DNA of 64,000 nt. Origin: Somniosus microcephalus. Lineage: Eukaryota. Positions within the stretch are counted from its first letter, which is position 1; each line of letters starts with the position of its first letter. Under the pieces are notes generated by a model. The model worked only from the letters and a program-made list of their open reading frames with translations. It was not told the DNA's origin and did not search any database. Below, in pieces: positions 1,395-62,429 of the stretch. The stretch covers positions 18,910,001 through 18,974,000 of the forward strand of contig CM126223.1 in assembly GCA_052327205.1 (NCBI GenBank), given 5' to 3'. A program made the translations under genes and the position numbers.

Positions 1395-3207
1395 TTAAAC
1401 CCAGGACTCTTCCTCTTCTTTTCTTTGCTCAGTGTCCTCTGTGATGGATTGTTGAACTGCTATTCTGCCTCTTGATGAGACACTGTGCCGAGGAGGCCAA
1501 AGGTTTTCTCCTGATCCAAGATCTTCCTCAGGTTTTGTGAAGTACAAAGTTGGGAGCTGTTTTCCCTGAGCTTTAGATTTTACAATCTTGCTGTTGGCTT
1601 TGAGAGATTTGTGGGCGCTTCCAGATTTTGTCGTGCCTTTTAATGTTTTATCCGCCTGTCTGTAGGATAATGGAGTTGGGATTTTCGATGGCTTCTTCTC
1701 AGGTCTGTTGTCCTGCCTGGGACGTATTTTGGGCCGAAGCTTCAACTTGTAGATGGAAGGAACTCTCTCTGGCTTTTTCAGTGACCTCTTTTGCCTTCCC
1801 TGTTGAACTCTGGGCTTCTGGAGAGTGCAGGGTGGATCTGGCCATTCAAAGGATGAATTGGTATCAGATCCTTCATTTGTGGATATGGAATTCAACTCAA
1901 GAGCATTTATATCATTCTGAGCTGTCGTTGTATGACTCTTCACACTGCCCGGATCTGTGCCCTTAAAATCATTGTTCTGTTGGTTGCATTGAACAGATGT
2001 TGATCCAATCTTCGTAGATCTTGCGCTTTGTTCTTCAGTTCTGCTGGGGAACGGCCTGCTGGTTTCCATGGAGCTCAAAACTGCTGGCTGTAGATTAGCA
2101 CTAGAATCAGGTGACACCATTTCTGGAGGGCTCTTTGCTATCCAGTTCTCAATGTCCACGCGATTGAGCTTCTGTGTTCCGCTAACAATCTCAGCAAGAA
2201 CAGTGATGAAACTGTTGCCATTCTGAGTCACTTTTATTGAATGGGGTGAAGCCACATTACTACAACTGTAAGGTCTATTAATGTTATCAAAATGACTGGC
2301 TCCACCTGGGAAAGAGGAAACCGAATACCTTGAAGAACTCGTAGGGTCAAATCTTTTAAATTCCTTCTGTTTTGAAGAACCGGGCAAACTGGACACTGAA
2401 GACAATGTATGGAGCCCACTGTCCTCCAAATTGTCCTCATCTAAATCCACCGCCAGAGCTTTCATATTGGACACAATTTCATCTTCAAGGCTTTTGTATA
2501 GTTCTGACTCCTGTGTAGGATCAATGGGTGGGGGTGTGAATAAACACGCCTCATTCCTGCCATTATTAACCCCTTTATTGTTGTTGTTATTTATGCTGTA
2601 AGGGTCTGGGGTTCGTGATCGATTCTGACTTTTTTGTTGAGTCGATTTCTTTGCTCCATCAGTTAATGGTTTTCTGATACATTTCGATTCTTGCCAACAG
2701 CCTTCTTGCCAGGTACCGGCTGGGGTGAGAGGTCGCTGAGTTACTTGACCCCTCTCGCATTTCTTACCAGCATCTTGAACGTCTGAGACCTTACACAGTC
2801 GGCCAGGTGCAGGCGAATGACTCCTTGCTGATTCTCCGGAGATTCTGGAGGTCATTTCTGAAGTAGGTTTGTGTGTCTGTGAAAAAGAACTTGTGCTTTG
2901 CTTGTTCGCGTTTGAGTTGCTTTGGTCCACTTTGGACTGAACGAACTGGGCATTAGTCCAAGTCCGGCTCAGCCTGTTATCAGATTGTTGAGGAACAATA
3001 AGATGAATTGGCACTTTCTTGTGGTCCATCATAGGCACAATGCTCTGCTTGTTCTCCTGAACTGCAGAACATGGCTTTGAAAGTACTGGCACAGCCCTGC
3101 TCTTCTGTCTCCCTGTTCTAGCTGCTGTGGTGGTCTTGGAGCTGCCTCTGGCACTGTCAACGTTGGTTGATATTTGGGAAGAAGGAGTAGATGGACGATC
3201 TTTTTGC
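1395..3207 (-). CDS. GAS2L2: GAS2L2 last coding exon (low-complexity tail with EB-binding SxIP motif)
   Basis: Acceptor TTTAG|G completes AGG (phase 2), in frame with ORF 1395..3260. Contains [35 protein letters not shown] and ends EEESWV*, both GAS2L2 hallmarks. Total CDS is 2934 nt (977 aa). Confidence 0.92.
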
Positions 3208-3994
3208 CTAAACAATAAATCAGAAATGTTTCCATTAGTAGGAAATGAAAAAAAACACATGTAATTCTTTCCTAGTGATTACCTGAGAAAATTGTTGAGT
3301 AAGATTGTGTGGTACAAACTGTGCCTGATTTCCGGGTGGAAAACAAGGGGGGGGGGGGGGGCAATCTCACCACACAATGTCCGATGCCCGATCTGGGCCT
3401 GCGTTACGGGTGCCACTATATTGATGAAGGCGGTTTTGCAGGCGTGCTGGGTGGCCGCCTTAAAAAGGCGTTAGCCCTGTTACCATATGTAAATGAGTGG
3501 CCTTACACCTGCTTTAGGCCCCCTCGCCGGAATCGGTTGGTGATCAGCAGAGTAGGCGTTGGGCCTGCTCCACTCGGGATTCTTCAGTGGCCTCTGCGGC
3601 CACCAACAAATTGTAGGTACATTTAAAAAAAAAAAAATAGGTCAGTAATCGTTGCTGTGAAGCCAGGAGGTGCTGGAGTGCCTCCGTTGACTCCACAGCC
3701 TGGCGCTCTACATGCATACAGCATCCGGGCCAGAGATGGTTGTTGTGGAAATGGCAGTTACCAACGTGTGAACCTTTCATGTGTTGGACATCGTGAGAGT
3801 TAACAGTGTAACTGTGGTCAGCTGTGGCTCAGTGGGTAGCACGCTCTAGGTGGGAGGGGCTAGGAGTGAGCCAGGTGTGACTGGTTGCCTAATTGCAGCT
3901 GGGTGTTGGAGGGAGTTTTGTAAAAAGTTGGTGGAGGGTTTTGGGGTGTTGTTTTCAGGTTTTAGGGCCTTTTTGGCCCACAAAAAACAGCCAG

Positions 3995-5676
3995 ATGGCT
4001 GCTGAGGGGTCCGGAGTGCCGGGCCCCTCAGAGGACAATATTCCCGAGAGGAATTTTATTAGGGAAGAAACTGTGGTGGGAAGGGGGAAAAAAAGGCCCA
4101 AAGATTTGGGCCGGGACCTCAGGAGGTTTGGTAAAGAAAATACGGTGGTGGTGCAATGTGAAGATAAGAAGATTCGAGCCTGGGATATAATCCAGGCAGT
4201 TCATGAGGACTGTGGTGAGGGAAGCTGTTTTGCCTGCCGACCAAAACCAAATGTGGGATTTGAGGTGACGGTCAGTGGCCGTGAGGAGGTGGAAAAACTG
4301 CTGCTCAGTCTGAAAGTTGGGGAGCAATTCTTGGAGGTGACTCTGCTATATTCAGAGAGGTGGTGGTTTCATTTTTGAACTTGCCTGTGTACATCGAGGA
4401 CGAAGTGCTGAGCAAAAAGTTGGAGTCGTGGGACATTAAAATCTGTTCCGAAATAAAGAGGAGGTACTATCCGGGAACACGGGTAGCAGGCGGAACCCGT
4501 TATGTAAAGGTGCGGTTCCCAGAGGGGGTGAGGTCTTTGCCGTACAGTATGAAGTTCGAGACACTGGAAGGAGTACAGTACTTTCGTGTGCTGCACGATA
4601 ACCAAGTAAAGGTGTGTTACTATTGTCTGGGACATGACCATCTCGTAAGAAACTGTCCTGATTTGTATTGTTACAATTGCGGTGAGTCGGGACATATCGC
4701 ATGGAGCTGCAAGGCGGAGAGCTGTGGGGTGTGTCGTAAAGGCCCCACCCGCTGTGAGTGTGTGGCAGAAGGGAGCGAAATGAGTGATGAGGAGATGGGA
4801 GAAGGAGCAGGAGAGGAGTGTGGAACGGCCGGAGGTGCGGTGCAGTCGGAGGACACAGCTGGTAAAATGAAGGAAAAAGGAGCACAGGAAAAGGCAGAGG
4901 ATGGCGGAGTGGAGATCGAGATGGAGATGGCGGAAAACACGGTGAGTGCTATGGTGGGGAACAAAGACAGCAGCGGGCAGCGAGGGTCGAGTGCAGACTC
5001 GAGCCTTAGTGCAGTTCGGCTCCCCCTGGGGAGTCTGGTGTCTGCGGGGGGAGAGGAGGCAGGAGCGGGGTGTGTGGTGGAAGTGAGTGCTCCGGGGAGA
5101 GGCGGGGAGTCGGGTATTTTGGTGAGCGGGAGGGGGCAGGGCGGGGAGAGGGTGCAAGAGGCAGGAGCCTTAAAGGGACAGCAGAATGGGATCGGCGAGA
5201 TAGAGACGTCAGAAGGGAACAATTTAGGTGCGTCATTGTCCCATGGAGTGAGGGAACAAGGTGCAAGGGTCAGAGGTGGAGACGTGGTCGAAGGGGGCGG
5301 CACAGTGGGAGAAACTGCGATAGCAGGAAAACTCTCTATGGGAGGTGAAGTATCTGACGGGGAGCAGGATTATGTATCTGACGGGGAGCAGGCACAGGGG
5401 GTTGCAGAAGAGCTTGAGTGTGAGGAATTAGAGGGGGACAGAGACATGGAAGTCGGGGATGGGGTGGCATCATGTGGAAAGGGAAAGGTTAGTGAGGGGC
5501 AGAAGGAGGGAGAAAGGGCAGCTCCTGGGTCCAAACTTAAGGCAAGGAAGAGGCTGAAACAGCAGGGAGGGGTCAAACAGGAGGGGAAAAAGAGCCGGTG
5601 GCTGCAGGAAAAAGCAACAGCTGCCCGAAAAGTTGAGAAGGAGCATGAGAGGAGGGAAGAGCCAGAGATCAAATGA
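3995..5676 (+). pseudogene. Tx1 ORF1 (gag-like zinc-knuckle protein), one frameshift near 4360
   Basis: MAAEGSG... continues after the shift into VVSFLNLPVYIEDE...GTRYVKVRFP. Knuckles CYYCLGHDHLVRNC and CYNCGESGHIAWSC. The stop overlaps the ORF2 ATG (ATGA). Confidence 0.85.
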
Positions 5677-8600
5677 TGGGGAGATTATTGGGCATACTTC
5701 CCTTCTTTGGAGCCATGATTACATTGGTCTCGATCAATGTGAACGGACTGAGGGGTGAGAAGAAATTGCAACAGTTGTTGCAGGGTTTTAAAGGCACGGA
5801 CTTGTTGTGTCTGCAAGAAACCTTTTGGGATGAGGATATTCTAGAAAGAGTTCAGAAGGTTTAGAAGGGAGGGGTGTTTGCAAGTTGTGCAAACAATAAC
5901 CGTAGAGGGGTGGCTGTTTTGGTGAGTCCGTCCATAGAAGAGAACGTTGCCTTGGTGGACAAGGACACTGAGGGGAGATTTTTACGGCTAAGGGTAAAAT
6001 TGGAGGGATTTAATTGTGATCTTTTTAATATCTATGCACCGAACGACCATTGCAAGCGTCGCGAGTTTTTTCGGGGGTTATTCACTGAAGTGGCAGAGGT
6101 GGAAAATCCTTGTATAGTGGGGGATTTCAATGTATTGTTATCTTGGATGGACATTTCAGCCCAGATGACCTTTAAAGATGATAACTCCAGAGGGATGATT
6201 ATAAAAATGATGGCAAATTTAAATTTGAGAGACTTATGGAAGGACCGGAACCCCATAAAAAGGGAGTTCTCCAGAGCAGGTTGGGTGGGTGATGTTTTAA
6301 AATAGAGCTGAATAGATTTTGTGTTAATGCGGGAAGGGTTAAGTTCGGAGGTGATGGAGATTTATTATAAAAAAGTATTTTTTAGTGATCACTCGGCTTT
6401 GGTTCTTAGAATTAGGAACAGCAGAGTTAAGATTGGTTCAGGAGTGTGGATTTTAAACAATCAATACCTGAAGGAAAGTGCTTATAAAGAAGGGATTATA
6501 AACATAATAAAGAATGCTCGGAAGGAACTTTTGTTCTTGAAAGAAAGAAGAGTTTGGTGGGACAATTTCAAATATGAGGTAAAAGTTTTTTCGGTACGTT
6601 ATGGGAAAAAGAGGGTGACAGCTAACCGGCATCGAGAAGAGAATATAAACAAAAGTTTTACAGATGTCTGTAAAGCAGTTGACGGAGGGGATAAGGGAGC
6701 TGAGACTAAGTTCTGGGTGCTGAAGGAAGAGTGGGAATTATTGCAAGCCGAAAAATGCAAGGGGGCCACTCTCCGTGCAAAGGCTAGAGATGCATTGGAG
6801 GGCGAAAGATGCACTAGATATTTTCTAGAGCAAGAGAAGCTGCGACAGAGATTATCGTTAATTGAGGAGTTGAAGGTTGGGGAGAAGATCATTCATGAAA
6901 GTGAGGAGATTTTGGAGGCGGCTAGCAGCTTTTATCAAGAGCTATATACAAAAGAAGACATTTCCAATTTGGAGATGGAGAAGGTTACTGCTTTTATTGA
7001 AAAGGGTTTAAAGGAGGATGAGAGAAGCATGTGTGATAAAGAAGTAGGATTAGCAGAAATAAAAATAGCAATAAGTGGAATGAAGGGGGGGGGAAAGCCC
7101 AGGGTCCGATGGACTAAGTGCAGAATTTTATAAGGAATTTTTTGAGATTTTAAGTCCATTGCTCTTAGAAGTTTTTAAGGAAATTAAAATTGAGGGAAGC
7201 CTGGCCCCATCTATGAGGAGAGGTATCATAAGCTTAGCTTATATAAAAATAAAGGGGATAGACGGGATCTGAAGAATTGGAGGCCCATCACACTATTAAA
7301 TGTGGATTATAAGATCTTGGCGAGGGTTATGGCAAATCGTTTGAAGGAGGTGTTACCGGAGATAGTTTGGCCCTCTCAGTCCTATGGAGTCATAGGCCGG
7401 GACATCGCAGACTCTGTGGTCTCAATCCGAGATGCGATAGAGCTCATGGAAGAGAGTGGGAGGGAGGCTTATGTATTAAAGAAAGATCAAGAGAAAGCCT
7501 TTGATAGGGTCGCTCATGAGTTTTTATTGAAGGTTTTGGAAGCATTTGGTTTCAAGGAAAATTTTATTCAGTGGATAAGGATTTTTTATTCAAACATATT
7601 TAGCTGTGTTAAATGTAATGGTTTTTTATCTAAGTATTTTCCGATACAGAGATCAGTGAGACAGGGTTGTCCCCTGTGCCCATTGCTGTACACATTGGTA
7701 GCAGAACCATTAGGTTACATGATGCGAAAGAAACAAGGTGTAGTTGGGATTGTGGTACCCAGTTCTGGGCTGGTGTCGGTGATACACCAATATGCAGATG
7801 ACACAACCTTAACATTGAGAAATGTGGAGTCAGTGAGGAAAGCTATGGAGGTAGTGGAGGAATATTGTAGAGCTTCAGGTGCCAGAGTGAATTATAGTAA
7901 GTCCCAATGCCTGGTTGCAGGGAGGGGTAGAGGGGAATGGTTGGGGGTATGTCCCTTTAAGGTGGTGGAGGTTTTGGAAGTTCTGGGGGTGCATATGGGA
8001 TGCAAGAATGACAGGGAAGAAGTGGATCGATTAAATTGGGAACCGAAGGTTATGAAAATTAAAAAGATTTTGGGAAGATGGGAAAGAAGGTGGTTGAAAG
8101 TGCAAGGAAGAGCAACAGTGGTGTCTGCTCTCCTGCTATCTAAGCTATGGTACTTATTGACGGTGGAGGATATTCCTGAGTGGGCAGAAAAGTCCATCCG
8201 AGAGGCTTGTGTGAGGTTTTTATGGGAAGGGAAACCAGCCTTGGTGGCTTACAATACCATCATTGGACGGAGTAATCAGGGAGGACTCAATTTCCCAGAT
8301 ATTGATTTGAAGAAAAAATCCTTTAGAATCAAATGGGTGAAGAGATTTGTTCAGAAGTCAAATTCAAGTTTTTGGAAGAGTTGTTTTGAACATTTTTTAA
8401 AACGAAGTGGGATAGGAGGGCAGGGGATATTATATATGGAATACAATAATATGTTTTTGAAATCGATTAAGCTTCTCCCTAGGTTTTATAAGGGGGTTGT
8501 AGAGACTTGGGCTCAATTTTTAAAAAGTGTGCAGTTTATGCCCAAGGGGGCTGAGGAATTTTTAGAACAGCCCTTATTTTTGAATAGGTGGGTCAACATC

Positions 8601-9554
8601 GAAGGAGAGGTTTTATTTAATCAAGCTTTTATAAAAGCTGGGATTATATCTGTGAAAGATGTATTATACGAGGTGATTCCAGGTTGGTTGCCGGAAGCGA
8701 TAGTGAGGGACATGGTGTGGGAGGAGGATCAGGAGGTAGAAGGAAAAGCAATAGGAATCATGTATGAGAAGATTGTGAGGGCAATGCCACAGGATTGGAT
8801 GGAAGAAATAAATGCGGAAATCTCCAAAGGAAGTAAAATGCGTCCTGCTTTTCCAAGCTTTGTACTGGAGAAAGGGGGAGAGTTGGTCCAATTTGACAAC
8901 TGTAATACTCGAGATTTCTATGAGGTATTCAGAGAATGGAGATTCAAGACACCTGCTGGTCAGGAGTTTTGGCAGAGTATATACCCACAGCTGGACTTCA
9001 ACAAGATTTGGAAGGGAGTGTGGGCGAATTTTAAATGCCCAGAATGGATTGAACTGGATTTCAAATTGGCTCATAACCGGATTTTTACCATGACAGTCTT
9101 GTGCAAGATTGGACGAGTGGAGGCGGCAACTTGCCCAATGTGTGGGACACAGGATGAGACTCTGTCCCATTTACTGGTGTTATGTCCGCAGTTAAATGAC
9201 TTTAAGTACTATGTTCGACAGTTGTATGAAGCTTTTTTGCTGGGTGGGGACCGAACAGCGAGAATGGGAATCCCGTGGGACTCAATTTTGAGATGGGGAT
9301 TGCAGGAGAGTCTGCCAGAGTCTAGCGGAGCGGCAATTAATTTAATGTTCAGTTTGGCTAGATTCGTGATTGTGCAAAGAAGGAATGCTCTGTTTTTTAA
9401 GGGGAGGAGAATCAATCTAAAAGACTATTTTAAATATAAGCTAAAAGATCATTATAAGGCTCTGTGGATGTTTTATTCAGAAAGAAAGGAATTTAATGAC
9501 AGTATTTTACAACCAATTTTTAAAATACAATCGATTAATATATGCTACAGGTGA
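5673..9554 (+). pseudogene. Tx1 ORF2 (AP endonuclease, reverse transcriptase, C-terminal zinc finger), disrupted
   Basis: EN motifs SINVNGL, LQET, NIYAPN, GDFN, SDH. RT motifs RQGCPL and YADD. C-terminal CPMC..ETLSHLLVLC. Stops at about 5862, 6303 and 6309; frameshifts at about 7090 and 7240. Confidence 0.9.
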
Positions 9555-9701
9555 GAAATTAAACTTCAGGTTTTGATGTTAAAATGTGGTGGCGGAATGG
9601 CTGTGCAGGGCAGTGGAATTGATTTGTATCATACAATGTAATGATCACGATGTTGTCAATGTTCTTAATGTTCAATAAAGTATAATAAATTTTTTTTTTA
9701 A

Positions 9702-10145
9702 AGTGGGTAGCACACTCGCCTCTGTAGTCGGAAGGTTATGGGTTCAAGTCCCACCCCAGGGACTTGAGCATATAAAGCTAGGCTGACAGTCCAGAGCAGT
9801 GCTGAGGGAGTGCTGCACTGTCAGCGGTGCCATCGTCAGATGAGACATTAAACCGAGGCCCCGTCTGCTCTCTCTAGGTGGACGTAAAAAATCCCATGGC
9901 ACTATTTCGAAGAGGAGTAGGGGAGGTGTCCTGGCCAACATTTATTCCTCAATCAACATAACAAAAACAGATTAACTGGTCATGATCACATTGTTGTTTG
10001 TGGGAGCTTGCTGTGCGCAAATTGGCTGCCGCGTTTCCCACATTACAACAGTGACTCCACTTCAAAAAGTACTTCATTGGCTGTAAAGCGCTTTGAGACG
10101 TCCGGTGGTCATGAAAGGCGCTATAGAAATGTAAGTCTTTCTTTG
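9702..10145 (+). mobile_element. tRNA-derived Deu-domain SINE (SacSINE1/AmnSINE1-like); its first ~30 nt lie at 3815-3846, split off by the Tx1 insertion
   Basis: A-box TGGCTCAGTGG (3825-3835) and B-box GGTTCAAGTCC (9741-9751). Deu core ...gatgagacattaaaccgaggccccgtctg...; L2-like tail gaaaggcgctatagaaatgtaagtctttcttt. Confidence 0.85.
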
Positions 10146-10514
10146 TTTTAACAGTCGAACTTCTTTGTATCATGAAGCAATAAACTTTCCAATATAAACA
10201 GGATGACTGTAAAGAGTTGTGAAAGGAATGCATCGCTTGCCTTCTGATACGTAGAGTGCTTGTGTAAGGAAATAACTGTCAGTCACCCATGAGTGGTTAT
10301 GGTTTTGTTTTAAGGTAATAAAATGTAACTTTAGTTTTAGGGTAATAAAAGATGGGTAGAGAATCCATTAGCTGCAGATAACAGTTGGTAAAGCTTTTTC
10401 TTCAAAGGGTTTAGGGACCGTTACATCAGGAAGTCTTATTTAGGGGAAGTAGCTTTGAAATAAACAACTGCAAGTGTTTACGTGAATAGTCTGTTTTCAA
10501 AGGATCTGGAAATA

Positions 10515-17084: not shown

Positions 17085-20000
17085 TTTAAACTAATTAGTG
17101 GGGGGGAGGTTTCTAGAGAGCAAATAATAGAAATGACAACAGAGAAGGTCATAGACTTAGGTAGCAGTGGGGGAATTAAAAAACAGAATGTGTCAGGAAG
17201 GGACAGAAGGTATGGAGTAAAAAGTAAAGTACTAAAAAGGGAAAAAACAGGAACTAAGTGTTACAAAACATATTTGAAAGTTCTTTATCTGAATGCACGT
17301 AGCATTCGTAACAAAATGAATGAGTTAACGGCACAAATAATGACATATGGGTATGATCTTGTGGCCATTACAGAAACATGGCTGCAGGGTGACCATGACT
17401 GGGAATTAAACATACCAGGTTATTTAACAATCAGGAAGGACAGGCAGGAAGGGAGAGGAGGTGGGGTGGCTATGTTAATAAAGGAAGGAATCACTATAAT
17501 ACAGAGAAATGATATTGGGTCAAAGGAGCAGGATAGTGAAACAGTTTGGGTGGAGGTAAGGAATAATAAGGGGAAAAAAACACTAGTGGGTGTAGTCTAT
17601 AGGCCTCCAAACAGTTGCAACTCTGTTGGACGGAGTATTAATCAGGAAATAGTTGAGGCTTGTAATAAGGGAACAGCTATAATTATGGGGGATTTTAATT
17701 ATCATATTAACTGGACAAATCAAATTGGGCAGAGCAGCCTTGAGGAAGAGTTCATTGACATTCATTAACATACAGGGTGGATAAAGGGGAACCAGTGGAC
17801 GTAGTGTATTTAGACTTCCAAAAGGCATTTGACAAGGTGCCACACAAAAGATTATTGCTCAAGATAAAAAATCACGGGATTGGGGGTAATATTCTGGCGT
17901 GGGTGGAGGATTGGCTCTCTAACAGAAAGCAGAGAGTTGGGATAAATGGTTCGTTCTCAGATTGGCAACCAATAACTAGTGGTGTTCCGCAGGGGTCAGT
18001 GCTGGGTCCCCAACTCTTTACAATCTATATTAACGATTTAGAGGAGGGGACCGAGTGTAACATATCAAAGTTTGCAGATGATACAAAGATGGGAGGGAAT
18101 GTAGTGAGTGAGGAGGACATAAAAAACCTGCAAAGGGACATAGACAGGCTAAGTAAGTGGGCAGAGATTTGGCAGATGGAATACAATACTGGAAAGTGTG
18201 AGGTTATGCACTTTGGCAGGAAAAATCATAGAGCAAGTTATTATCTTAATGGCAAGAAACTGGAAAGTACTGTAGTACAAAGGGATCTGGGGGTCCTGGT
18301 GCACGAAACACAAAAAGTTAGTATGCAGGTACAGCAAGTGATTAAGAAGGCCAATGGAATGTTGGCTTTTATTGCTAGGGGGTTGGAATATAAAAACAGG
18401 GAGGTATTACTGCAGTTGTACAAGGTATTGGTGAGGCCGCACCTGGAATACTGCATACAGTTTTGGTGTCCATACTTAAGAAAAGACATACTTGCTCTCG
18501 AGTCAGTACAAAGAAGGTTCACTCGGTTAATCCCGGGGATGAGGGGGTGGTCATATGAGGAGAGGTTGAGTAGATTGGGACTCTACTCATTGGAGTTCAG
18601 AAGAATGAGAGGCGATCTTATTGAAACATATAAGATTGTGAAGGGGCTTGATCGGGTGGATGCGGTGAGGATGTTCCCAATGATGGGTGAAACTAGAACT
18701 AGGGGGCATAATCTTAAAATAAGGGGCTGCTCATTCAAAACTGAGATGAGGAGAAACTTCTTCACTCAGAGGGTGGTAGGTTTGTGGAATTTGCTGCCCC
18801 AGAAAGCTGTGGAAGCTACATCATTAAATAAATTTAAAACAAAAATAGATAGTTTCCTAGAAGTAAAGGGAATAAAGGGTTACGGGGAGCGGGCAGGAAA
18901 TTGGACATGAGTCTGGGTTCGGAATGGTCATGGCCCTGTGGGTAGTGGAGCGGGCCCAGGGGCCGTGTAGCCTTGTTCTGCTCCTACTGTGTTCTAATTC
19001 TGTTAGATTTCAGGAGATGGTTTTATTCCTGTTCCTGGCTGGGGTGGAGATCGCCTTTACAGAAGGTAAGTACTGTAGAAAATATAGGGACAGAGTGATC
19101 TCCTGGAAGAATTTCGATCGCCTAGATGGGTCGGAGAGGAATTTCCCAGATTTTTTTCTCCCAAATTGGCCATTGGGTCTTTATCTGGTTTTTCGCCTCT
19201 CCCGGGAGATCACATGGGTTCGGGTGGATGCAGAGTGATAGAAGATTTGAGGTTAGGATCAGATCAGCCATGATCTTATTGAATGGTGGAGCAGGCTCGA
19301 GGGGCCGATTGGCCTACTCTTGCTCCTATTTCTTATGTTCTTATGTTCTTATGAGTGTATTAGGGATGGGTTTCTTGAGCAGTATGTAACTGAACCGACC
19401 AGGGGGCAAGCAACCTTAGATTTGGTCCTGTGTAATGAGACAGGATTAATTAAAAATGTCCTAGTAAAGGATCCCCTTGGAATGAGTGACCATAACATGG
19501 TTGAGTTCCATATTCAATTAGAGGGTGAGAAGGTTGGATCTCAAACAAGCGTGCTGAGCTTGAATAAAGGAGACTATGAAGGTATGAGAGCGGAATTAAT
19601 TAGAGTGGACTGGGAAAATAGATTAAAGGGTAAGACGGTACATGACCAGTGGTGTACATTTAAGGAGTTATTTTACAACTTCCAAAAAAAATATATTCCA
19701 CTGAGGAAAAAAGGGTGTAAAAGAAAAGATAGCCATCCGTGGCTAAGTAAAGTAATTAAGGATAGTATCCGACTAAAAACAAGGGCATATAAGGTAGCCA
19801 AATCTAGTGGGAGGATGGAAGATTGGGAAGTCTTTAAAAGACAGCAAAAAATAACAAAAAGATTGATTAAGAAAGGGAAGGTAGATTATGAAAGTAAATT
19901 AGCAAAAAATATAAAAACAGACAGTAAAAGTTTCTATAGTTATATAAAAAGAAAAAGGGTGGCTAAAGTAAATGTTGGTCCCTTAGAGGATGAGACCGGG

Positions 20001-22120
20001 AAATTAATGGTGGGAAACATGGAGATGGCAAAAACACTGAACAATTATTTTGTATCAGTCTTTACAGTAGAGGACACTAAGAATATCCCAACACTGGACA
20101 AACAGGGGGCTCTAGGGGGGGAGGAACTAAATACAATTAAAATCACTAAGGAAGTGGTACTTGGTAAAATAATGGGACTCAAGGCGGATAAATCCCCTGG
20201 ACCTGATGGCTTGCATCCCAGGGTCTTGAGGGAAGTAGCGGTAGGGATTGTGGATGCATTGGTAATAATTTTCCAAAACTCACTGGACTCAGCAAAGGTC
20301 CCGGCAGATTGGAAAACTGCTAATGTAACACCCTTATTTAAAAAGGGTAGTAGGCAGAAGGCTGGAAACTATAGACCTGTTAGCCTAACATCTGTGGTTG
20401 GTAAAATGTTAGAGTCCATTATTAAGGAGACAGTAACGGGACATTTGGATAAACATAATTTAATAGGGCAAACTCAGCATGGTTTCATGAAGGGGAAGTC
20501 ATGTTTAACAAATTTGCTTGAGTTTTTTGAGGAAGTAACATACAGGGTGGATAAAGGGGAACCAGTGGACGTAGTGTATTTAGACTTCCAAAAGGCATTT
20601 GACAAGGTGCCACACAAAAGATTATTGCTCAAGATAAAAAATCACGGGATTGGGGGTAATATTCTGGCGTGGGTGGAGGATTGGCTCTCTAACAGAAAGC
20701 AGAGAGTTGGGATAAATGGTTCGTTCTCAGATTGGCAACCAGTAACTAGTGGTGTTCCGCAGGGGTCAGTGCTGGGTCCCCAACTCTTTACAATCTATAT
20801 TAACGATTTGGAGGAGGGGACCGAGTGTAACATATCAAAGTTTGCAGATGATACAAAGATGGGAGGGAAAGTAGTGAGTGAGGAGGACATAAAAAACCTG
20901 CAAAGGGACATAGACAGGCTAAGTAAGTGGGCAGAGATTTGGCAGATGGAATACAATACTGGAAAGTGTGAGGTTATGCACTTTGGCAGGAAAAATCATA
21001 GAGCAAGTTATTATCTTAATGGCAAGAAACTGGAAAGTACTGTAGTACAAAGGGATCTGGGGGTCCTGGTGCACGAAACTCAAAAAGTTAGTATGCAGGT
21101 GCAGCAAGTGATTAAGAAGGCCAATGGAATGTTGGCTTTTATTGCTAGGGGGTTGGAATATAAAAACAGGGAGGTATTGCTGCAGTTGTACAAGGTATTG
21201 GTGAGGCCGCACCTGGAATACTGCATACAGTTTTGGTGTCCATACTTAAGAAAAGACATACTTGCTCTCGAGTCAGTACAAAGAAGGTTCACTCGGTTAA
21301 TCCCGGGGATGAGGGGGTGGTCATATGAGGAGAGGTTGAGTAGATTGGGACTCTACTCATTGGAGTTCAGAAGAATGAGAGGCGATCTTATTGAAACATA
21401 TAAGATTGTGAAGGGGCTTGATCGGGTGGATGCGGTGAGGATGTTCCCAATGATGGGTGAAACTAGAACTAGGGGGCATAATCTTAAAATAAGGGGCTGC
21501 TCATTCAAAACTGAGATGAGGAGAAACTTCTTCACTCAGAGGGTGGTAGGTTTGTGGAATTTGCTGCCCCAGAAAGCTGTGGAAGCTACATCATTAAATA
21601 AATTTAAAACAGAAATAGATAGTTTCCTAGAAGTAAAGGGAATAAAGGGTTACAGGGAGCGGGCAGGAAATTGGACATGAGTCTGGGTTCGGAATGGTCA
21701 TGGCCCTGTGGGTAGTGGAGCGGGCCCAGGGGCCGTGTAGCCTTGTTCTGCTCCTACTGTGTTCTAATTCTGTTAGATTTCAGGAGATGGTTTTATTCCT
21801 GTTCCTGGCTGGGGTGGAGATCGCCTTTACAGAAGGTAAGTACTGTAGAAAATATAGGGACAGAGTGATCTCCTGGAAGAATTTCGATCGCCTAGATGGG
21901 TCGGAGAGGAATTTCCCAGATTTTTTTCTCCCAAATTGGCCATTGGGTCTTTATCTGGTTTTTCGCCTCTCCCGGGAGATCACATGGGTTCGGGTGGATG
22001 CAGAGTGATAGAAGATTTGAGGTTAGGATCAGATCAGCCATGATCTTATTGAATGGTGGAGCAGGCTCGAGGGGCCGATTGGCCTACTCTTGCTCCTATT
22101 TCTTATGTTCTTATGTTCTT
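17085..22120 (+). mobile_element. Young CR1 LINE (whole ORF2, truncated at the ORF1 stop), antisense to the gene and interrupted by a nested copy
   Basis: EN part 17133-17756 (YLNARS, ITETWL, YRPP, GDFN) joins ECIRDGF... from 19353 to 21680 (PQGSVLGP, FADD). The joined ORF is 983 aa with no stops. Tail (ATGTTCTT)n. Confidence 0.92.
17766..19352 (+). mobile_element. 5'-truncated CR1 nested in the endonuclease region of the same family
   Basis: About 1.6 kb nearly identical to 20537-22120 (4 amino-acid differences visible), with its own tail. Confidence 0.9.
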
Positions 22121-40554: not shown

Positions 40555-43500
40555 CATTGGGTGATAGAGTTATACAGCACAGAAAGAGGCCCTTCGGCCC
40601 ATCGTGTCTGCGCTGGCCATCAAGCCCTATCTATTCTAATTCCATTTTCCAGCACTTGGTCCGTAGCCTTGTATGCTTTGGCATTTCAAGTGCTCATCTA
40701 AATGCTTCTTGAATGTTGTGAGAGTTCCTGCCTCTACCGCCCTTTCAGGCAGTGAGTTCCAGATTCCAACCACCCTCTGGGTGAAATTTTATTCCTCAAA
40801 TCCCCTCTAAACCTCCTGCACCTTACCTTGAAACTATGCCCTCTGGTTATTGACCCCTCTACTGAGGGGAAAAGTTCCTTTCTATCTACCCTATCTATGC
40901 CCGTCATAATTTTGTACACCTCAATCAGGTCCCCCCTCAGCCTTCTCTGCTCCAAGGAAAACAACCCCAGCCTGTCCAGTCTCTCTTCATAACTGAAACG
41001 CTCCAGCCCAGGTAACATCCTGGTGAATCTCCTCTGTACCCTCTCCAATGCAATCACATCCTTCCTATAGTGTGGTGACCAGAACTGCACACAGTATTCC
41101 AGCTGTGGCCTAACTAGCGTTTTGTACAGCTCCATCATAACCTCCCTGCTTTTATATTCTATGCCTCGGCTAATGAAGGCAAGTATCCCATATGCCTTTT
41201 TAACCACCTTATCTACCTGTCCTGCTGCCTTCAGGGATCTATGTACATGTACACCAAGGTCCCTCTGATCCTCTGTCCTTCCTAGGGTCCTACCATTCAT
41301 TGTGTATTCCGTTGCCTTGTTAGTCCTCCCAAAATGCATCACCTCACACTTTTCAGGGTTAAATTCCATTTGCCACTGTTCCGCCCATCTGACCAACCTG
41401 TCTATATCGTCCTGAAGCCTGAGGTTTCCCTCCTCGCTATTTACCACTCCACCAATTTTCATGTCATCTGCGAACTTACTGATCGTACCTCCTACATTCA
41501 TATCTAAATCATTAATGTACACTACAAACAGCAAAGGACCCAGTGCCAATCCCTGTGGTACACCACTGGACACAGGCTTCCAGTCACAAAAACAACCTTC
41601 GACCATCACCCTCTGCCTCCTGCCACTAAGCCAATTTTGGATCCAATGTGCCAAATTGTCCTGGATCCCATCGGCTCTTACCTTCTTGACCAGTCTCCCA
41701 TGCGGGACTTTGTCAAAAGCCTTACTGAAGTCCATGTAGACCACATCAACTGCACTACCCTCATCCACACACCTAGTCACCCCCTCGAAAAATTCAATCA
41801 AATTGGTTAGACATGATCTCCCCTGACAAAGCCATGCTGACTATCCTTGATTAATCCTTGCCTCTCCAAGTGGAGACTAATTTTGTCCCTCAGAATTTTT
41901 TCCAATAATTTCCCTACCACTGATGTTAGGCTCACTGGCCTGTAATTCCCTGGTTTATCCCTACTACCCTTCTTGAATAATGGTACTACATTAGCTGTCC
42001 TCCAGTCCTCTGGCACCTCCCCTGTGGCCAGAGAGGTTCTGAAAATTTGTGTCAGAGCCCCTGCAATCTCCTCCCTTGCCTCACACAGCAGCCTGGGATA
42101 CATCTCGTCTGGGACTGGGGATTTATCCACTTTTAAGCCTGCTAAAACCGCTAGTACCTCCTCCCTCTCAATACTAATTTGTTCAAGTATATCACAATCC
42201 CCCTGCCTGATTTCTATGCCTACATCGTCCTGCTCCATAGTGAACACAGATGCAAAATATTCATTTGAAACCTCACCTACATCTTCTGGCTCTACACACA
42301 GATTGCCACTTTGGTCCCTATTGGGCCCTACTCTTTCCCTGGTTATCCTCTTGCCCTTAATATACTTATAAAACACCTTGGGAGTTTCCTTTATTTTGCC
42401 CGCCAGTGTTTTTTCATGCCCCTACTTCGCTCTCCTAATTTCTTTTTTAAGTACCCCCTTGCACTTTCTATACTCCTCTAGGGCTTCCACTGTTTTTAGT
42501 CCTTTGTATCTGCCAAAAGCCTCCCTTTTTTTCCCGAATCCATTCTTGTATATCCCTTGACATCCAGGGTTCCCTGGACTTGTTGGTCCCACACTTGACC
42601 TTTACGGGAACATGTTGGCATTGTACTCTTTCTATTTCCTTTCTGAAAGACTCCCACTGCTCTGATGTGGATTTTCCCGCAAGTAGCTGATCCCAGTCCA
42701 CTTTGGCCAGATCCTGCCTTATCGTATTAAAATCGGCCTTCCCCCAATTTAGAACCTTTATTTCCGGTCCATCTTTGCCCTTTTCCATGACTACCTTAAA
42801 TCTCATTGAATTATGGTCACTGTCACTAAAATGCTCTCCTACTGACACTTCTACCACTTGCCCCGCTACATTCCCTAGAATTAGGTCCAGTACCGCCCCC
42901 TCTCTTGTAGGACTTTCTGCATGCTGGCTCAAAAAGCTCTCCTGGACGCCTTTAAGAATTCCGCACCTTCTAAGCCTTTCACACTCTGCCTATCCCAGTT
43001 AATATTGGGAAAGTTGAAATCCCCTACTATTATTACCCTATTATTTCTACGCTTCTCTGAAATTTGCCTACATATCTGTCCCTCTATCTCCCCCTGACTG
43101 TTTGGGGGCCTATAGTACACTCCCAGCAAAGTGCTTGCCCCCTTTTTGTTTTTAAGTTCAACCCATATGGCCTCATTAGAGGAACCTGCTAAGATATCAT
43201 CCCTCCTTAATGCAGTAATTGACTCCTTGATTAATATTGCGACACCCCCTCCTCTTTTACACCCCCCTCTGTCTCGCCTGAAGATTCTATACTCCGGAAT
43301 ATTGAGCTGCCAGTCCTGCCCCTCCTTCAACCATGTCTCTGTGATAGCAACAATATCAAACTCCCATGTGTTCATCAACACCTTCAATTCATCTGCCTTA
43401 CTCGCAAGACTCCTTGCATTAAAATAAATGCCATCCAGCCTTGCCATACTTCCCTGTGCCATTACATATTTGCACTGCCTTCCAGGCTGACTTGTTTTTT

Positions 43501-47900: not shown

Positions 47901-50900
47901 ATGTCTCCAAGTTTGCAGACGACACAAAGCTGGGTGGACGTGTGTGCTGTGAGGAGGATGCCGAGAAACTCCAGTATGATTTGGTCAGGTTGGGTGATCG
48001 GGTAGTGTTGCGTCCGTGTATAATAAGACACAGACTGCGGAGAATGGTACAACAGGTGTTTACTCAACGTGGCTCACACTGCAACTGATCTGTACAGATT
48101 ACTACTCAGGGTTTATATACAGGTGTGGTCACTGCCGGTACTGCAGTATACATGAGCTGTAAAACATAGTTCCCCCCCTTAAAAGGTATAGACATTACAA
48201 TTCCTCCCCTTTTAGGTTAACAGTACCATAACACTCATTTAACAATTAAATATCAAACTAATTACAATTAACACTTTTAACATGCAACATTAGCTGAAAA
48301 TAGTCTATTTATATATTCAGTCTTTGGGGAGGCTTCCTGATCCTTTCTGGATAGTGCCTTTCCCGAGTGTCTTGCTCTTGGTGCGGAGGCGATTCTGGCC
48401 CCCTGTCATCGGTTGGTTCATCAGATTCCGATGCTACTGTTTCTGGGGTAGATGCGACCTGTACGTCAGGTTCATCACCAGGTACGTATGGGCGAGGCAT
48501 GGGGTTGACTTGTTCCTGTGACTGTAGGATCTGGTCAGCATGGCATCTCACGATGCTCTCCCCAACGTCCACTGTGTACATTAGTGGGCCCTGCTGTGTG
48601 CATATCGTCCTGGCTGCCATTTTTCTGTTCGGTAGTCGCGGGCCAAGACTGGTTGCCCTACATTGAAGCTCCTTGTTGGCTTCTCATGGATGTGCTGGAA
48701 TTGCTTACTCTCAACATCTCTTTGTACGTTTGGTCTGAGCAAATCCAGGCGAGATCTTAACCTTCGGTTAAAGAACATCATGGCTGGGGCCTGGTTGGTG
48801 ACTGCATGTGTCGCATTCCGGTTGGCGAACAGGAAATTGTCCACCTTGTGCTACAGCGGAATGTTGTCATCGTACATAGCCTTTATTGCCTTCTTAAAGG
48901 TTTGTACGAACCTCTCAGCCAATCCATTTGTGGCTGGATGATACGGGGCGGATGTGTGATGCCTTACCCCATTCTTTTTCAAGAACCTCCGGAACTCTTC
49001 GGACACAAACTGTGGTCCGTTGTCGGAGCAAATCTGTTCTGGCAAGCCATTCCTGGCAAAAATGGTCCGTAGGACTGCAACAGTTTTCTCCGTGGTGGTG
49101 GAGGACATTTTGATGACCTCAGACCATTTCGAGTGCGCATCCACGGCTATTAAAAACATTGAGTCCATGAATGGACCAGCAAAATCAATATGCACCCATT
49201 GCCATGGAGATGAGGGCAACTCCCATGGGTGTAGAGGGGCATGTGGTGGTGCATTTTGGACTCTCTGGCATCCTGAGCAGCTCTTGGTCAGGTCCTCGAT
49301 TTGTTTATCGATTCCCGGCCACCACACAAGTCCTGGCTAGGCTTTTCATTTTTACCCCTCCCAGATGACCCTCATGAAGCTCATTGAGCACTCTATCCCT
49401 TAACTTGGGTGGAATTACCACTCAGGATCCACACATCAAGGTCCCCCGGCACACTGACAGCTGTTCTCTCCTTGTCGAGAATGCTGGCAACAGTGAGTCG
49501 CCATGTGCTGGCCATCCCTTCACCGTCAAATCATATACCCGAGACAGTGTCGGGTCATTTCGGGTTTCCTTTTCGATACAAGCGTTAGTTACCGGTAGGT
49601 ATTCAACTATAGTCGAATGGAATATTTCGACAGGATCCACTGCTGGTGCTTCCTCCGCAGTAGGCAGTGGCAGGCGTGATAGCCCATCAGCATTTCCATG
49701 CTGTTTTGTGCCCTTATATTCAATCTCATAGTGGTGCACCCCTAGAAAAAGTGACCATCTTTGTAGTCGTTGCGCAGTCATCACCGGAACGCCCTTCTTT
49801 GGATTAAAAATGGAGACAAGAGGCTGGTGATCAGTCAGCAAGGTGAATTTCTGCCTGTGCAGATAGTGATTGAACTTTTTCACTCCCCACACTAGGCTGA
49901 GGTCCTCCCTGTCAATCTGGGCGTAGTTACGCTCAGCTGAGGTTAGTGATCGTGACACAAAGGCTATTGGCCTCTCTGAGCCGTCCGAGAATTTGTGCGA
50001 CAGCACCGCTCCAATGCCGTAGGGTGACGCATCACATGCCAACCGAATTGGTAATGCTGGGTTGTAATGGGCCAATACCTCTTTCGATGTGATTAGTGTT
50101 TTGCTCTTCTGGAAAGCTCATCTACATTCGTCACTCCACTTCCATGGCACTCCAGTTTGCAGTAGGGTGTTCAGTGGGTGTAGTATTGTAGACAAATTTG
50201 GCAAGAACTTATGGTAGTAGTTTACCAACCTGAGGAACGACCTCAGTTGTGACACATTTTCCGGTGCTGGAGCCTTGACTACTGCCTCAATCTTCTCTGG
50301 GGACTTATGTAACCCCTCTTTATCGATAACGTGGCCACAATACGAGATCTGTTTTCTAAAAAACTCGCATTTGGGGCGGTTAGCTTGGAGCCCATATTCC
50401 TGCAATCTAGTGAGCACCTGCTCCAGGTTGGCAAGGTGATCACTGTCATTTTCGCCCGTGACCAGGATGTCGTCAACACTGGGTCCCTGGGATCCCTTGC
50501 AGGACTTGTTCCATTGCCCTCTGCCAAATAGCCGGAGCTGATGCTACCCCGAATACCAGCCGGTTGTATTGGTGTTTATGGGTGTTGATTGCGAGGTATT
50601 TTTTTGATGCTTCTTCTACCTCCATTTGCAGATACGCCTGGGCCAGATCAATCTTAGTGAAGCGTTTCCCTCCAGATAGCGAGGCAAAAATATCTTCAAT
50701 CCGCGGAAGTGGATATTGTACGGTGTGAAGGACCGGGTTCACTGTTACCTTAAAGTCCCCACAGATGCGAACCTTCCTTGGTTCCCCAGGCGTGCTGCTC
50801 AATGACTTTTTCATCACAGGGATGATGGGTGTAGCCCACTCGCTCCAGTTTACCTTGGACAGTACACCCGAACGTTCCAGACTCTCCAGCTCTGCTTCGA

Positions 50901-53900
50901 CGGCTGGGCGGATCATTATTTAGTTTCAGACAACTCAGTTCCCTGCTTTCGGAGTCGTTATCACTCTTTTGTTCATCTGAACTATTCTCCGTCATCTTAT
51001 GTACCTTCTTGTACTTTCCTTTGGTAGGTTTCTTATTGCTGGTTTTCTTTCCCGACCTGCAGACTCGTGCTATGTGTCTTACTTTTCCACACTGTCTGCA
51101 CACTTTTGGGCTTGCGTTTTCTTCAATTTTAATCGTCGCTGTCATGCCTTTTAGTGTTCCGAGTCCTTGCTGGAACATTTCTTTTGCGTCAGTTAGGATC
51201 TTTGACAGTCGCCCAGGTGTGACGTCGTCATCCTTTTTGTCAGCCACAGTCAGTGCCTGTATGGAATGCCAATCCAGTTGTATTTTCCGGATCCATTCAC
51301 GTCCCAGTAATGGTGGTCCTCCATCTTGCAATACATACAGGTCTAGTTTTGGTGTTTCCTTACCGTTATATATAACGGTCAGCCTTATTTTTCCTTTGGG
51401 ATAGACTTTTTGCCCCGTGTACATCTTCAAAATAATTTTTGTGTCTCTCAAGGGTATGTGTGAGAATAGCCGCTCGTAGTCCCGTCGGTTTATGACTGTT
51501 AGGGCTGATCCTGTGTCCAATTCCATCTTTACCTGGACTCCTGCTAACTTGAGAGTGACCCAAATGGTTCGGTGATCCTCCGTTGTGATCACATTATGTA
51601 GTTTCAGACAACTCAGTTCCCTGCTTTCGGAGTCGTTATCACTCTTTTGTTCGTCTGAACTATTCTCCGTCATCTTATGTACCTTCTTGTACTTTCCTTT
51701 GGTAGGTTTCTTATTGCTGGTTTTCTTTCCCGACCTGCAGACTCGTGCTATGTGTCCTACTTTTCCACACTGTCTGCACACTTTGTCTTTGAACCAGCAA
51801 TCATTCTGGTCGTGTGTTGTTCTGCCGCAGTGATAGCACTTCTCTGTTCCATATGACATTTTGTTTGTGCCATATTCTTGCGGTCTCTGTTGTATCTCTG
51901 CAGCGCCCCGTGCTGCTGCTTCATATGATACCGCAATGCTGAAAGCCTTTTCCAGCGTAAGGTCCTTTTCAGATAAAAGCCGTTTCTGGGTTCCTTCACT
52001 TTGAAGCCCACACACAAACTTGTCCCTTAAGGTATCTGCCAGTCCCGCTCCAAACTGGCAGTGTTTCGATAGTTTGCGCAGTTCTGTTAAATAATCAGCA
52101 TTGCTTTCATCCTTATGCTGGTTCCGTTTGTGAAACTTGAATCTTTCTGCTATCAGCAGCAGTGTGGGGTTTAAATGTTCCTTTAGTATCGTTACTATGT
52201 CTTCAAAACTCTTTTCCATTGGCTTCGTTGGGGTAACTAGATTTCATAATAAACCATACATCTTTGCACCCATTAAATTTAACAATACCGACGCTTTCTT
52301 GTCATCTGACACCTCATTTGCCTTGCAGTACACCTCTATTCGTTTGACATATGTAGTCCAATCTTCGACTTCATTGTCAAATACGGTGATACTGCCACTC
52401 TTCGGCATTTTGGGTGTGGTTTAAAATGGCATCGCCCAATGGCTTAAAATGGCATCTCCCGTGCTTTCCTTCCTCCCCCGCTGCTGCCAACGCCGCTCCC
52501 GGCGGTTCTCGTGGCAATGGCGGCGCCCTGTAGGTTTCACGCGCTTCTCCTGCGCTGCTGCCAACGCCGCTCTCGGCGGTCCTCGTGGCAATGGCGACGC
52601 CTCGCGGGTTTCTGCGCATCTCTCTCTCCCTCTCTCCGACGCTGCTCGGCCCCTGAACACCGGCTGCGCCCTGTGCGCTCTGCCCTCTCTCTCTCTCTCC
52701 CCCGTCGACGCTGCTCGGCCCTTTGCTGTGCCGCTCGGTCGGGCTCTAGCCCGCCGCTGTCCGGGAAGGGTCTGCGCACTACCTGTTGCCAGCCCATTTT
52801 GCTGGACCACCTCAACTGGAAAGCCAAGCCTGGCTCTCGACAGCCTCCCCCGCAATTCTCGAGTCTCTGCTGGATGACTGGGCGGTTGCCCGTGGTCGAC
52901 GCCCGAATCTCTGGCCTTGACCTCCAATCCACTGATCTCCAGGAACGAATCCCCGGGAGGTGATGCAGAGTTGCAGGTAGGTTCGAACCTGCCTTGTCGC
53001 CAATGTTGCGTCCGTGTATAATAAGACACAGACTGCGGAGAACGGTACAACAGGTGTTTACTCAACGTGGCTCACACTGCAACTGATCTGTACAGATTAC
53101 TACTCAGTGCTATATACAGGTGTGGTCACTGCTGATACTGCAGTATACATGAGCTGTAAAACATAGTTCCCCCCTTAAAAGTATATACATTACAGGTAGA
53201 TGCACGGCAAATGCAGTATAATGTGGATAAATGCGAGGTTATCCACTTTGGTAGCAAAAACAGGAAGACAGATTATTATCTGAATGGCACTAGATTGGGA
53301 AAAGGGGAAGTGCAATGAGACCTGGGTGTCCTTGTGCACCAGTCGCTGAAGGTAAGCATGCAGGTGCAGCAGGCGGTTAAGAAGGCAAATGGTATGTTGG
53401 CCTTCGTAGCGAGAGGGTTCGAGTACAGGAACAAGGATGTCTTGCTACAGTTGTACAGGGCCTTGGTGAGACTACACCTTGAGTATTGTGTGCAGTTTTG
53501 GTCGCCTTATCTGAGGAAGGATGTTCTTGCCATGGAGGGAGTGCAGCGAAGATTCACCAGACTGATACCTGGGATGGCAAGAATGATGTATGAAGAGAGA
53601 TTGGGTCGATTAGGCTTATATTCACTAGAGTTTAGAAGAATGAGAGGGTATCTCATTGAAACTTATAAAATTCTAACAGGACTACACAGGCTAAATGCAG
53701 GAAGGATATTCCTGATGGCGGGGGAGTCCAGAACCAGGGGTCACAGTCTAAGGATAAAGGGTAAGCCATTTAGGACTGAGATGAGGAGGAATTTCTTCAC
53801 CCAGAGTGTGGTGAACCTGTGGAATTCTCTACCACAGAAGGCAGTTGAGGCCAATTCATTAAATATATTCAAGAAGGAGTTAGATATATTTCTTAAGGCT

Positions 53901-61115: not shown

Positions 61116-61514
61116 GACCGTGCGACTGGGTCTAATCAGACTCACAGCATAATCGATCTGAGGATGTCAATGTCCTTGATCTAACTCACACTGAACGGTG
61201 CCTCACTTGGCTGCTCCGAGACCTTTCCCTTGGCCCCCTTTAATCGCAAACTTGTCCAAAGTGTTTCCTTGGGGTGCAGGGCGGAGGCTGTTGGGTTTGT
61301 CCACCTGGGCCGGGTCGGGGAGAGGTGTTTCACGGGGCCTCACGCCCTCCTGGACACGGTGTTTACAGTCACATACTTGTGTTTCCTACCGATCCCTCTC
61401 CCTAGCGACGGAAAGGCGTCCTCCTCCTACCTTAACCCCTGCCTGCCCGGGCTGGCTGCAAATAACACAAGGCTTCCCCTTGATAAACCGGCTCACTTTC
61501 TCTCTCTTTCTGCC

Positions 61515-61915
61515 TGGTCTCTAGTCAGTTTCTCTCTCCCCCGCCCCCTCCCCCGGTATGGTCAGTTTCTCTCCCCCTGTCTCTGGTCAGTTTCTCTCCC
61601 CCTGTCTCTGGTCAGTTTCTCTCCCCCTGTCTCTGGTCAGTTTCGCTCCCCCTGTCTCTGGTCAGTCCCCCCCCCCCCCCCCGCCCCCATGGTCAGTTTC
61701 TCCCTCCCCTGTCTCTGGTCAGTTTCTCCCTCCCCTGTCTCTGGTCAGTTTCTCTCTCCCCCCTCCCCCCCTTATGGTCAGTTTCTCTCCCTCCCCCATT
61801 CTCTGGTCAGGTGCCCTCTCTTTTCCACAGTCTCTAGTTATATTCGCTCTCCCTCCATCCCTAGATCTCTGATCACTTTCTCTGTCTCCCCCTGTCTGGT
61901 CAGTTTCTCTGTCCC
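61515..61915. repeat. Pyrimidine-rich ~25-bp minisatellite (CTCTGGTCAGTTTCTCTCCCCCTGT)n upstream of GAS2L2
   Basis: Tandem units visible in the sequence. Confidence 0.85.
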
Positions 61916-62429
61916 CAGGCCTCTACTACAGAGCTGTGAGTGCTTTAAAAATGAAAGTCAACATCTTTGATGTAAATAGTTTCTATTAATGTATTTATTT
62001 TTTTTGCTCAGTTTTAATGTATTCACTTCCCTGATACCAATCCCGATCGGAAAGGCTGGGCAGGCGAAGGGCTCCCAGTCTCCAACCTCTCTGTGCCCAG
62101 CTGCTGGGGGATGTACCTGATGCTTTAGTCGACTCATCACACCACCAAATGCTTTGTCCCCTTGCCCCCCTCCCCCCTCAGTACCTTGACTGGAAACAAG
62201 ATCGACAGTTGGGGGATGCTCGGTTCCCCTCGCGCTTCCATCGCCATTATTAAAGAACAAGAATTAAATTGCCTGAAATCATCCTGCAAGTGGATTCAGG
62301 TTTCTAAACTCCCCAGACTCACATTTTAAAAGCCTTGGTTATCACGTTGCTGTTTGTGAGATCTTGCTGTGCACAAACTGGCTGCCGCGCTACCTACATT
62401 ACAACAGTGACTACGCTTCAAAAGTATTT

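Follow-up and report, generated by a model that had tools for sequence, protein, structure and literature searches.

A Tx1-like LINE family inserts at one base of a SINE promoter, and the apparent target-site duplication of its full-length copies is false

A LINE that interrupts the promoter of a SINE raises the question of whether it arrived there by chance or whether one mobile element uses another as its landing site. Such a locus is present in the window analyzed here, a stretch of 64,000 nucleotides in which, according to an earlier note, an APE-RT element of about 5.85 kb lies between 16-bp repeats with one mismatch. That note read the repeat as a target-site duplication (TSD) that overlaps a SINE A-box, placed the B-box and body of this SINE directly past the 3' end of the LINE, and proposed a tRNA/SINE-targeting retrotransposon, in effect a LINE parasitising a SINE. 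The described anatomy is confirmed. The LINE is of the APE-RT type and 5,855 bp long (3847-9701), the enclosing repeats at 3831-3846 and 9702-9717 are identical at 15 of 16 bases, and the repeat does overlap the A-box of a SINE that continues to 10145. The features of the locus, in window coordinates, are as follows.

3800..3813, + strand: likely left TSD of the host SINE, which would predate the LINE insertion; 12 of 14 bases match 10148-10161
3815..3830, + strand: 5' portion of the tRNA-derived SINE head, upstream of the nick; probably mostly target DNA
3825..3835, + strand: A-box TGGCTCAGTGG, overlapping the 16-bp repeat
between 3830 and 3831: putative bottom-strand nick site of the empty target, placed from 3' junctions
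3831..3846, + strand: 5' copy of the apparent 16-bp duplication; family-wide mostly element-type, not a copy of the local target
3847..3994, + strand: LINE 5' UTR, containing TGAGCCA at 3867-3873
3995..5676, + strand: ORF1 with a CCHC zinc knuckle; frameshift near 4375 in the window copy
5673..9554, + strand: ORF2 with APE endonuclease, reverse transcriptase and zf-RVT; two stops and frameshifts in the window copy
9555..9701, + strand: LINE 3' UTR, with AATAAA at 9674-9679 followed by an A/T-rich tail
9702..9717, + strand: 3' copy of the apparent duplication; target DNA from the SINE that was hit
9718..10145, + strand: remainder of the SINE: body, tail and B-box (9741-9751), separated by 5.9 kb from the SINE 5' end
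10148..10161, + strand: likely right TSD of the host SINE, pairing with 3800-3813

Pfam matches identify a zf-CCHC domain in ORF1 (E 5e-7 to 8e-7) and Exo_endo_phos, RVT_1 and zf-RVT in the ORF2 pieces of the window copy, and the same three ORF2 domains occur in the naturally open 1,297-aa ORF2 of another locus (L209:2121-6011). An open ORF2 of at least 1,200 aa is retained in two of 54 paired copies, L209 and L092, and the window copy is one dead member of its family. In a tree of 42 reverse transcriptases (RTs) the LINE falls into a 20-row clade (SH-aLRT 99) together with the zebrafish protein BAC82613.1 and other fish and mussel proteins; this clade lies apart from plant and fungal L1s, and proteins automatically named "Transposon TX1" are found in a neighbouring group. 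BAC82613.1 is also the best named relative in a near-length search (37% over 769 aa), the match to human L1 ORF2p being far weaker (E 4e-40), and a homologue search for longer proteins added automatically named matches only. As the tree holds no labelled rows for Keno, Mutsu, Kibi, Dewa or Tx1L, membership of the Tx1 clade rests on structure and on the neighbouring BAC82613.1, and we describe the family as Tx1-like. A set of 60 loci (L091-L150) contains 45 nested insertions of many repeat types, several with TG...CA ends; a hotspot for nested insertions near element base 4860 was considered and rejected, the inserts there being different elements.

Rejoined across the LINE, the host SINE measures 460 bp and possesses a head with A and B boxes that aligns with a tRNA-Lys gene of the same genome. 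SINEs are common in the window, as the earlier note had said in counting at least seven, with BLAST recovering eight further pieces, none of which includes a full head; genome-wide, 12,199 empty heads were counted. This SINE may be SacSINE1 or a Deu-SINE, in which case the host would be a cartilaginous fish. The likeness to SacSINE1 is one of description rather than of reference sequence: SacSINE1 of cartilaginous fishes has a tRNA head, is about 460 bp long and is very abundant (PMC5499810), and the host SINE shares all three traits. No LINE targeting SacSINE1 is mentioned in the available passages of that study (PMC5499810). Each LINE insertion puts about 5.8 kb between the SINE start and the B-box, which would leave that SINE copy silent. 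The empty heads themselves vary by region. On contig C1 the variant with C at target position 7 is strongly clustered near both contig ends, with 59 such heads below 60 Mb and 2 in 60-188 Mb versus 65 heads with T at position 4, the latter variant occupying the interior. Position-7 C is found in empty heads on all position-13 backgrounds, and the distribution of head variants resembles the outcome of substitution or conversion that acts regionally and is possibly GC-biased. Position-7 C is rarer at hit sites (5 of 126) than among empty heads (30.6%), but given the clustering of C heads towards the ends of C1, avoidance of this variant by the endonuclease is not established.

The LINE family is large, with at least 1,301 copies counted as exact genome matches to a 21-mer at the 3' end, and the exact target 11-mer occurs within 8-36 nt after 891 of these 1,301 ends with none in reversed controls. 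All 30 of the best LINE 3' matches run into the SINE A-box, 29 of them at one base and one 10 nt upstream. An unbiased sample, composed of the first copies in order along contig C1, yielded 63 distinct 3' ends that are all located at the same A-box base in one orientation; 61 of these continue into the SINE body, and two are interrupted by a later insertion after 7-9 target bases. At the opposite end of the element the A-box motif precedes 79 of 81 LINE 5' ends and 78 of the 81 end at +16, many of these ends having been selected by 5' similarity or by the head pattern, while 30 5' ends picked by LINE sequence alone are all preceded by a SINE head. The converse search gives the same picture, as loci with poly(A) plus the target carry the 3' UTR of the LINE family in 30 of 30 cases. 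AATAAA and an A-rich tail are present at all 3' ends shown, and the target tolerates variants at positions 4, 10-13 and 16. Published work calls a family target-specific from 20% of its flanks, with Tx1-Mar using two regions (PMC4494074); against this criterion of >20%, one target accounts for 63 of 63 flanks here. Additionally, contigs from four runs with four organism labels cover both the LINE end and the SINE; among the pieces listed, none spans the junction with 31 bases to either side. The LINE family does target a SINE promoter, and does so near-absolutely. The earlier note had named heterogeneous flanks among other copies as the result that would speak against its proposal; the aligned 3' flanks are not mixed but all SINE A-box, and its description of a LINE parasitising a SINE is well supported by both the best and the unbiased 3' ends.

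Such targeting could be real and yet depend not on sequence reading but on factors of the Pol III machinery (TFIIIC/TFIIIB) that tether the LINE to SINE promoters, as holds for the tRNA-gene-targeting elements of Dictyostelium and yeast. The insertion site lies inside a Pol III promoter box, the 10-nt shift of the exceptional copy L322 corresponds to about one helical turn, and the tolerance of target variants would also be expected of tethering. However, tethering does not readily account for single-base precision in one orientation at all 63 ends, no tRNA gene hit was found in two pattern searches though tRNA genes bind the same factors, and specificity in the Tx1 clade has been attributed to the endonuclease (PMC4494074). 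We regard tethering as unlikely and favor sequence reading by the endonuclease.

The 16-bp repeat looks like an ordinary TSD at the window locus, and it is real as sequence. Because the target varies from copy to copy, the origin of each base can be read, and this can be used on 53 of 54 paired copies that have a 16-nt left copy (16 further 5' matches that lack a usable 3' end in the fetched region lie outside this paired test). At the variable positions 4, 7 and 13 the left and right copies agree in 34, 35 and 17 of the 53 pairs, versus 34.2, 35.2 and 16.9 expected under independence, and the discordance is total even in the youngest LINE copies. The 3' copy behaves as a sample of the SINE population, with T at position 4 in 35 of 126 cases versus 27.4% of the 12,199 empty heads. 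The 5' copy is uniform, having G at position 4 and T at position 13 each in 69 of 74 cases (T13 in 48 of the 53 pairs), and it is too uniform at these two positions for tree signal. Consequently, the claim of a 16-bp TSD does not hold for the full-length copies of the family: there the repeat is no true duplication, the 3' copy being target DNA and the 5' copy mostly element-type. Position 4 varies without regard to the LINE tree (28 versus 28.9 changes), and the frequency of its variant matches that of the genome; on these grounds a model in which RNA read-through supplies the first 7 bases of the 3' copy was rejected.

Truncated copies provide the counterpart. Of 62 copies, at least 45 are full-length, 30 of them by direct observation and 15 because a 5' junction lies no more than 20 kb away; 1 is truncated and 16 are left unassigned. 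A preponderance of full-length copies is unusual for L1-like elements. Three truncated copies were found in all (L032, L321 and L348), each in a SINE head. L032 and L321 have private target variants common to both sides over 16 bp (15/16 and 14/16) and, judged by these variants, carry a true 16-bp TSD, with L321 residing in a SINE whose tRNA-like variant at positions 10-12 is tolerated; L348 retains about 1 bp of duplication rather than 16. Truncated copies, which are unable to bring a head, thereby differ in behavior from full-length ones. Conversely, L322, which is nicked 10 nt upstream, has on its left a whole element-type head that differs from the right side at three bases. A search among head junctions that lack the usual start gave no further truncated copies in 27 rows, which proved to be SINE variants, other inserts or full-length elements. 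The same SINE site is also used by a 2-kb ORF1-only derivative found at L347:141-1955 and L357:145-4338 (C1 near 260.96 and 237.99 Mb), both with the identical deletion that joins element base 1876 to 5668-5670 and with 74-85% identity to the window copy. This derivative is a passenger at the target site of the LINE. A 300-bp internally deleted derivative, in which element bases 1-171 are joined to 5710-5833, is present at the same site in L236:1186-1530.

The reading that we consider probable is that the Tx1-like LINE inserts independently at one A-box base, likely through sequence reading by its endonuclease, and that an RNA led by SINE-head sequence likely anneals with the target and overwrites it. 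The APE domain would nick the bottom strand at GGCTC/AGT, the slash marking the putative nick, and reverse transcription would begin on the poly(A) tail. The top strand would be cut 16 nt further on, as indicated by the two truncated copies with true TSDs. The LINE RNA would start with SINE-head sequence from the donor locus, such that a full-length cDNA ends in head sequence that can pair with the 16-nt overhang, with mismatches resolved towards the cDNA. Annealing and overwriting of this kind would account for 5' junctions that are uniform, for the rarity of truncations and for a TSD that is false, and head annealing would explain the large proportion of full-length copies. Overwriting is not always complete, as full-length L184 and L121 each have a private indel common to both sides.

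Several observations touch on the RNA that this mechanism presumes. TGAGCCA in the 5' UTR is complementary to A-box bases 3825-3831 and closes a predicted hairpin, which gives z-scores of -3.5 (window copy) and -2.4 (another copy) on a 52-nt stretch chosen after the match was seen, and of -2.2 and -1.3 on 86 nt; we treat this hairpin as a lead only. No Rfam ribozyme match of HDV-like type occurs in 3750-4150 at E up to 5, a search that divergent ribozymes can escape. In one study, two runs contain RNA reads along the entire element, which passive read-through could produce, and among the rows listed none shows an RNA start at the SINE head. The insertion displaces the B-box from the 5' end. 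A bolder proposal, which we put forward tentatively and with somewhat less than even confidence, is that this vertebrate LINE lineage may have become an obligate hyperparasite of the SINE promoter that reads the A-box, starts its RNA in the captured head, folds the head against the 5' UTR and uses it as a target-rewriting homology arm, and so makes almost only full-length insertions.

A different history would give the same discordant repeats if the TSD was true at insertion and gene conversion among LINEs then made the 5' copies alike, or if a template jump onto SINE RNA occurred each time. At 5' position 7 the variant has only a weak association with the LINE tree (17 versus 21.8 changes, p 0.022) and shows some clustering along C1 (p 0.03, post hoc), just as position-7 C clusters near the contig ends in empty heads. 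This regional clustering counts against a purely donor-borne base, which would not cluster, and indicates that regional change after insertion exists; the indels shared by both sides of L184 and L121 could likewise be remnants of original duplications. Nevertheless, homogenisation must contend with left/right discordance that is total even among the youngest copies and with adjoining 5' UTRs that keep subfamily differences of up to about 20%, and free SINE RNA in a template jump would not stop at +16 in 78 of 81 junctions. We consider this history quite improbable and retain overwriting by a head-led cDNA as the preferred reading.

It is also conceivable that the true or ancestral target is the D-arm of tRNA genes, with SINE heads being a decoy that now absorbs the insertions. 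The SINE head does align with tRNA-Lys, the tRNA-like variant of L321 is tolerated, and selection could purge insertions from tRNA genes. Against this, the 5' piece borne by the element is of SINE type, and two pattern searches (3' end followed by a tRNA-type D-arm motif), whose patterns cover only part of the tRNA types, returned one match, a SINE. The tRNA gene set came from a family search that scored 63 of 453,990 candidates, mainly one Cys array. The SINE half of the earlier tRNA/SINE-targeting proposal therefore stands while targeting of tRNA genes is not shown, because no insertion into a tRNA gene was found, and we judge a tRNA D-arm target to be very unlikely.

Finally, the insertions are independent of one another, as near-identical LINEs sit in strongly diverged SINEs. 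Among 113 copies the median divergence is 3.4% for LINE 3' ends and 20.7% for the SINE bodies that follow. Among the 25 LINE pairs of lowest divergence (under 1%), 24 have SINE bodies that are 13-26% apart, and the remaining pair is a segmental duplicate. Tree-signal tests on 112 rows, with duplicates dropped, show that SINE position 13 in the 3' copy follows the body subtype and not the LINE tree (58 changes versus 54 when shuffled), while the LINE tail variant does follow the LINE tree (20 versus 44.9 shuffled). LINE and SINE-body distances are weakly correlated (Mantel r 0.18, p 0.007, duplicates left in), which may reflect shared age or local rate. A single ancestral insertion that yielded a SINE-LINE-SINE composite copied as a unit, or a chance insertion, is thus extremely improbable: despite the SINE on both flanks of every copy, the SINE's own TSD around the whole and the weak Mantel correlation, SINE bodies six times more diverged than the LINEs they enclose, mixed subtypes unlinked to the LINE tree and truncated copies that also sit in SINE heads exclude the composite, and chance would give about 1e-4 per insertion on a generous head count. 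Near-identical insertion pairs about 1 Mb apart on C1 (65-68 Mb; L049/L051, L050/L052 and L053/L054) are segmental duplications.

The known targets of Tx1 LINEs include U2, 5S, tRNA spacers, microsatellites, piggyBac, Mariner, Harbinger and LTR elements (PMC4494074, PMC5340908, PMC3706591). Those aimed at other transposons include Tx1L in Tx1D, crocodilian Tx1-Mar in Mariner-N4_AMi, Tx1-8_Crp and Tx1-4_AMi in LTR elements and Tx1-9_AMi in Harbinger (PMC4494074). They share with the present family two ORFs, the APE-RT organization, a poly(A) tail, a preference for interspersed repeats and non-autonomous passengers at the site (PMC4494074), but here the target is a SINE promoter and one base is used in essentially all copies. 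Additionally, the available passages of PMC4494074 describe no RNA-borne target sequence for Tx1 LINEs, whereas one is inferred here. Mutsu inserts into 5S rRNA genes, Keno into U2 and Dewa into a tRNA-Leu spacer (PMC5340908, PMC3706591), and these resemble the present LINE in sequence-specific insertion into multicopy small-RNA sequences with many full-length copies; they occupy tandemly arrayed host genes or spacers, while the present target is a dispersed, polymorphic parasite. Dada DNA transposons insert into the A-box region of tRNA genes (tRNA positions 8-13; PMC8869645), which is the region used here, but they are DNA transposons in real tRNA genes, and the word SINE is absent from the available text of that paper (PMC8869645). 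Dewa, Dada-t and TRE5 all insert in or beside real tRNA genes, of which the present LINE gave none under partial motif coverage. No SINE-targeting Tx1 family was found in a literature search, outside of which Repbase and Dfam entries lay.

The closest parallels to the 5' junction come from R1 and R2. There are R2 elements whose RNA carries upstream 28S sequence, and the uniform 5' junctions of R2 and R1 are attributed to annealing of cDNA with the target; earwig R2 has propagated a 22-bp false duplication of downstream target with substitutions, and melanogaster-type R1 has TSDs on truncated copies and other junctions on full-length ones (PMC3774820, PMC2718515). Target-derived sequence at a uniform 5' junction is common to these elements and the present LINE, for which it is a genomic signature only. 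R1 and R2 belong to other clades and have rDNA targets, and the RNA end of R2 is set by a ribozyme of a kind not found in the present LINE. Their targets are also near-uniform, so that donor and target bases are rarely separable and overwriting is hard to see, whereas the present LINE shows it copy by copy. For the R2 model, how a LINE joins its 5' end and primes the second strand is described as the largest uncertainty (PMC3774820). The false TSD is most likely the part of greatest interest to specialists. Apparent TSDs can be false, and the polymorphic SINE targets suggest that the donor overwrites the target. The SINE promoter joins the list of Tx1 targets; as a landing site it is safe and renews itself, and its use would silence a rival parasite. 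If the hyperparasite proposal is true, more than a thousand loci would preserve, for each base, a trace of how the second strand was primed and how mismatches were resolved, and the endonuclease could become a new tool for site-specific insertion into a dispensable repeat.

Beyond the LINE, the window contains other long open frames:

17759-21680, + strand: long open frame
40734-41840, - strand: long open frame
50750-52243, - strand: long open frame
61185-61970, + strand: long open frame

An open frame of 627 aa at 1395-3278 on the minus strand has no Pfam match and is probably a large last exon, in which case the LINE would lie antisense in an intron. We presume a resemblance of this frame to GAS2-like genes, the Atlas match to GA2L1 having scored only 0.78.
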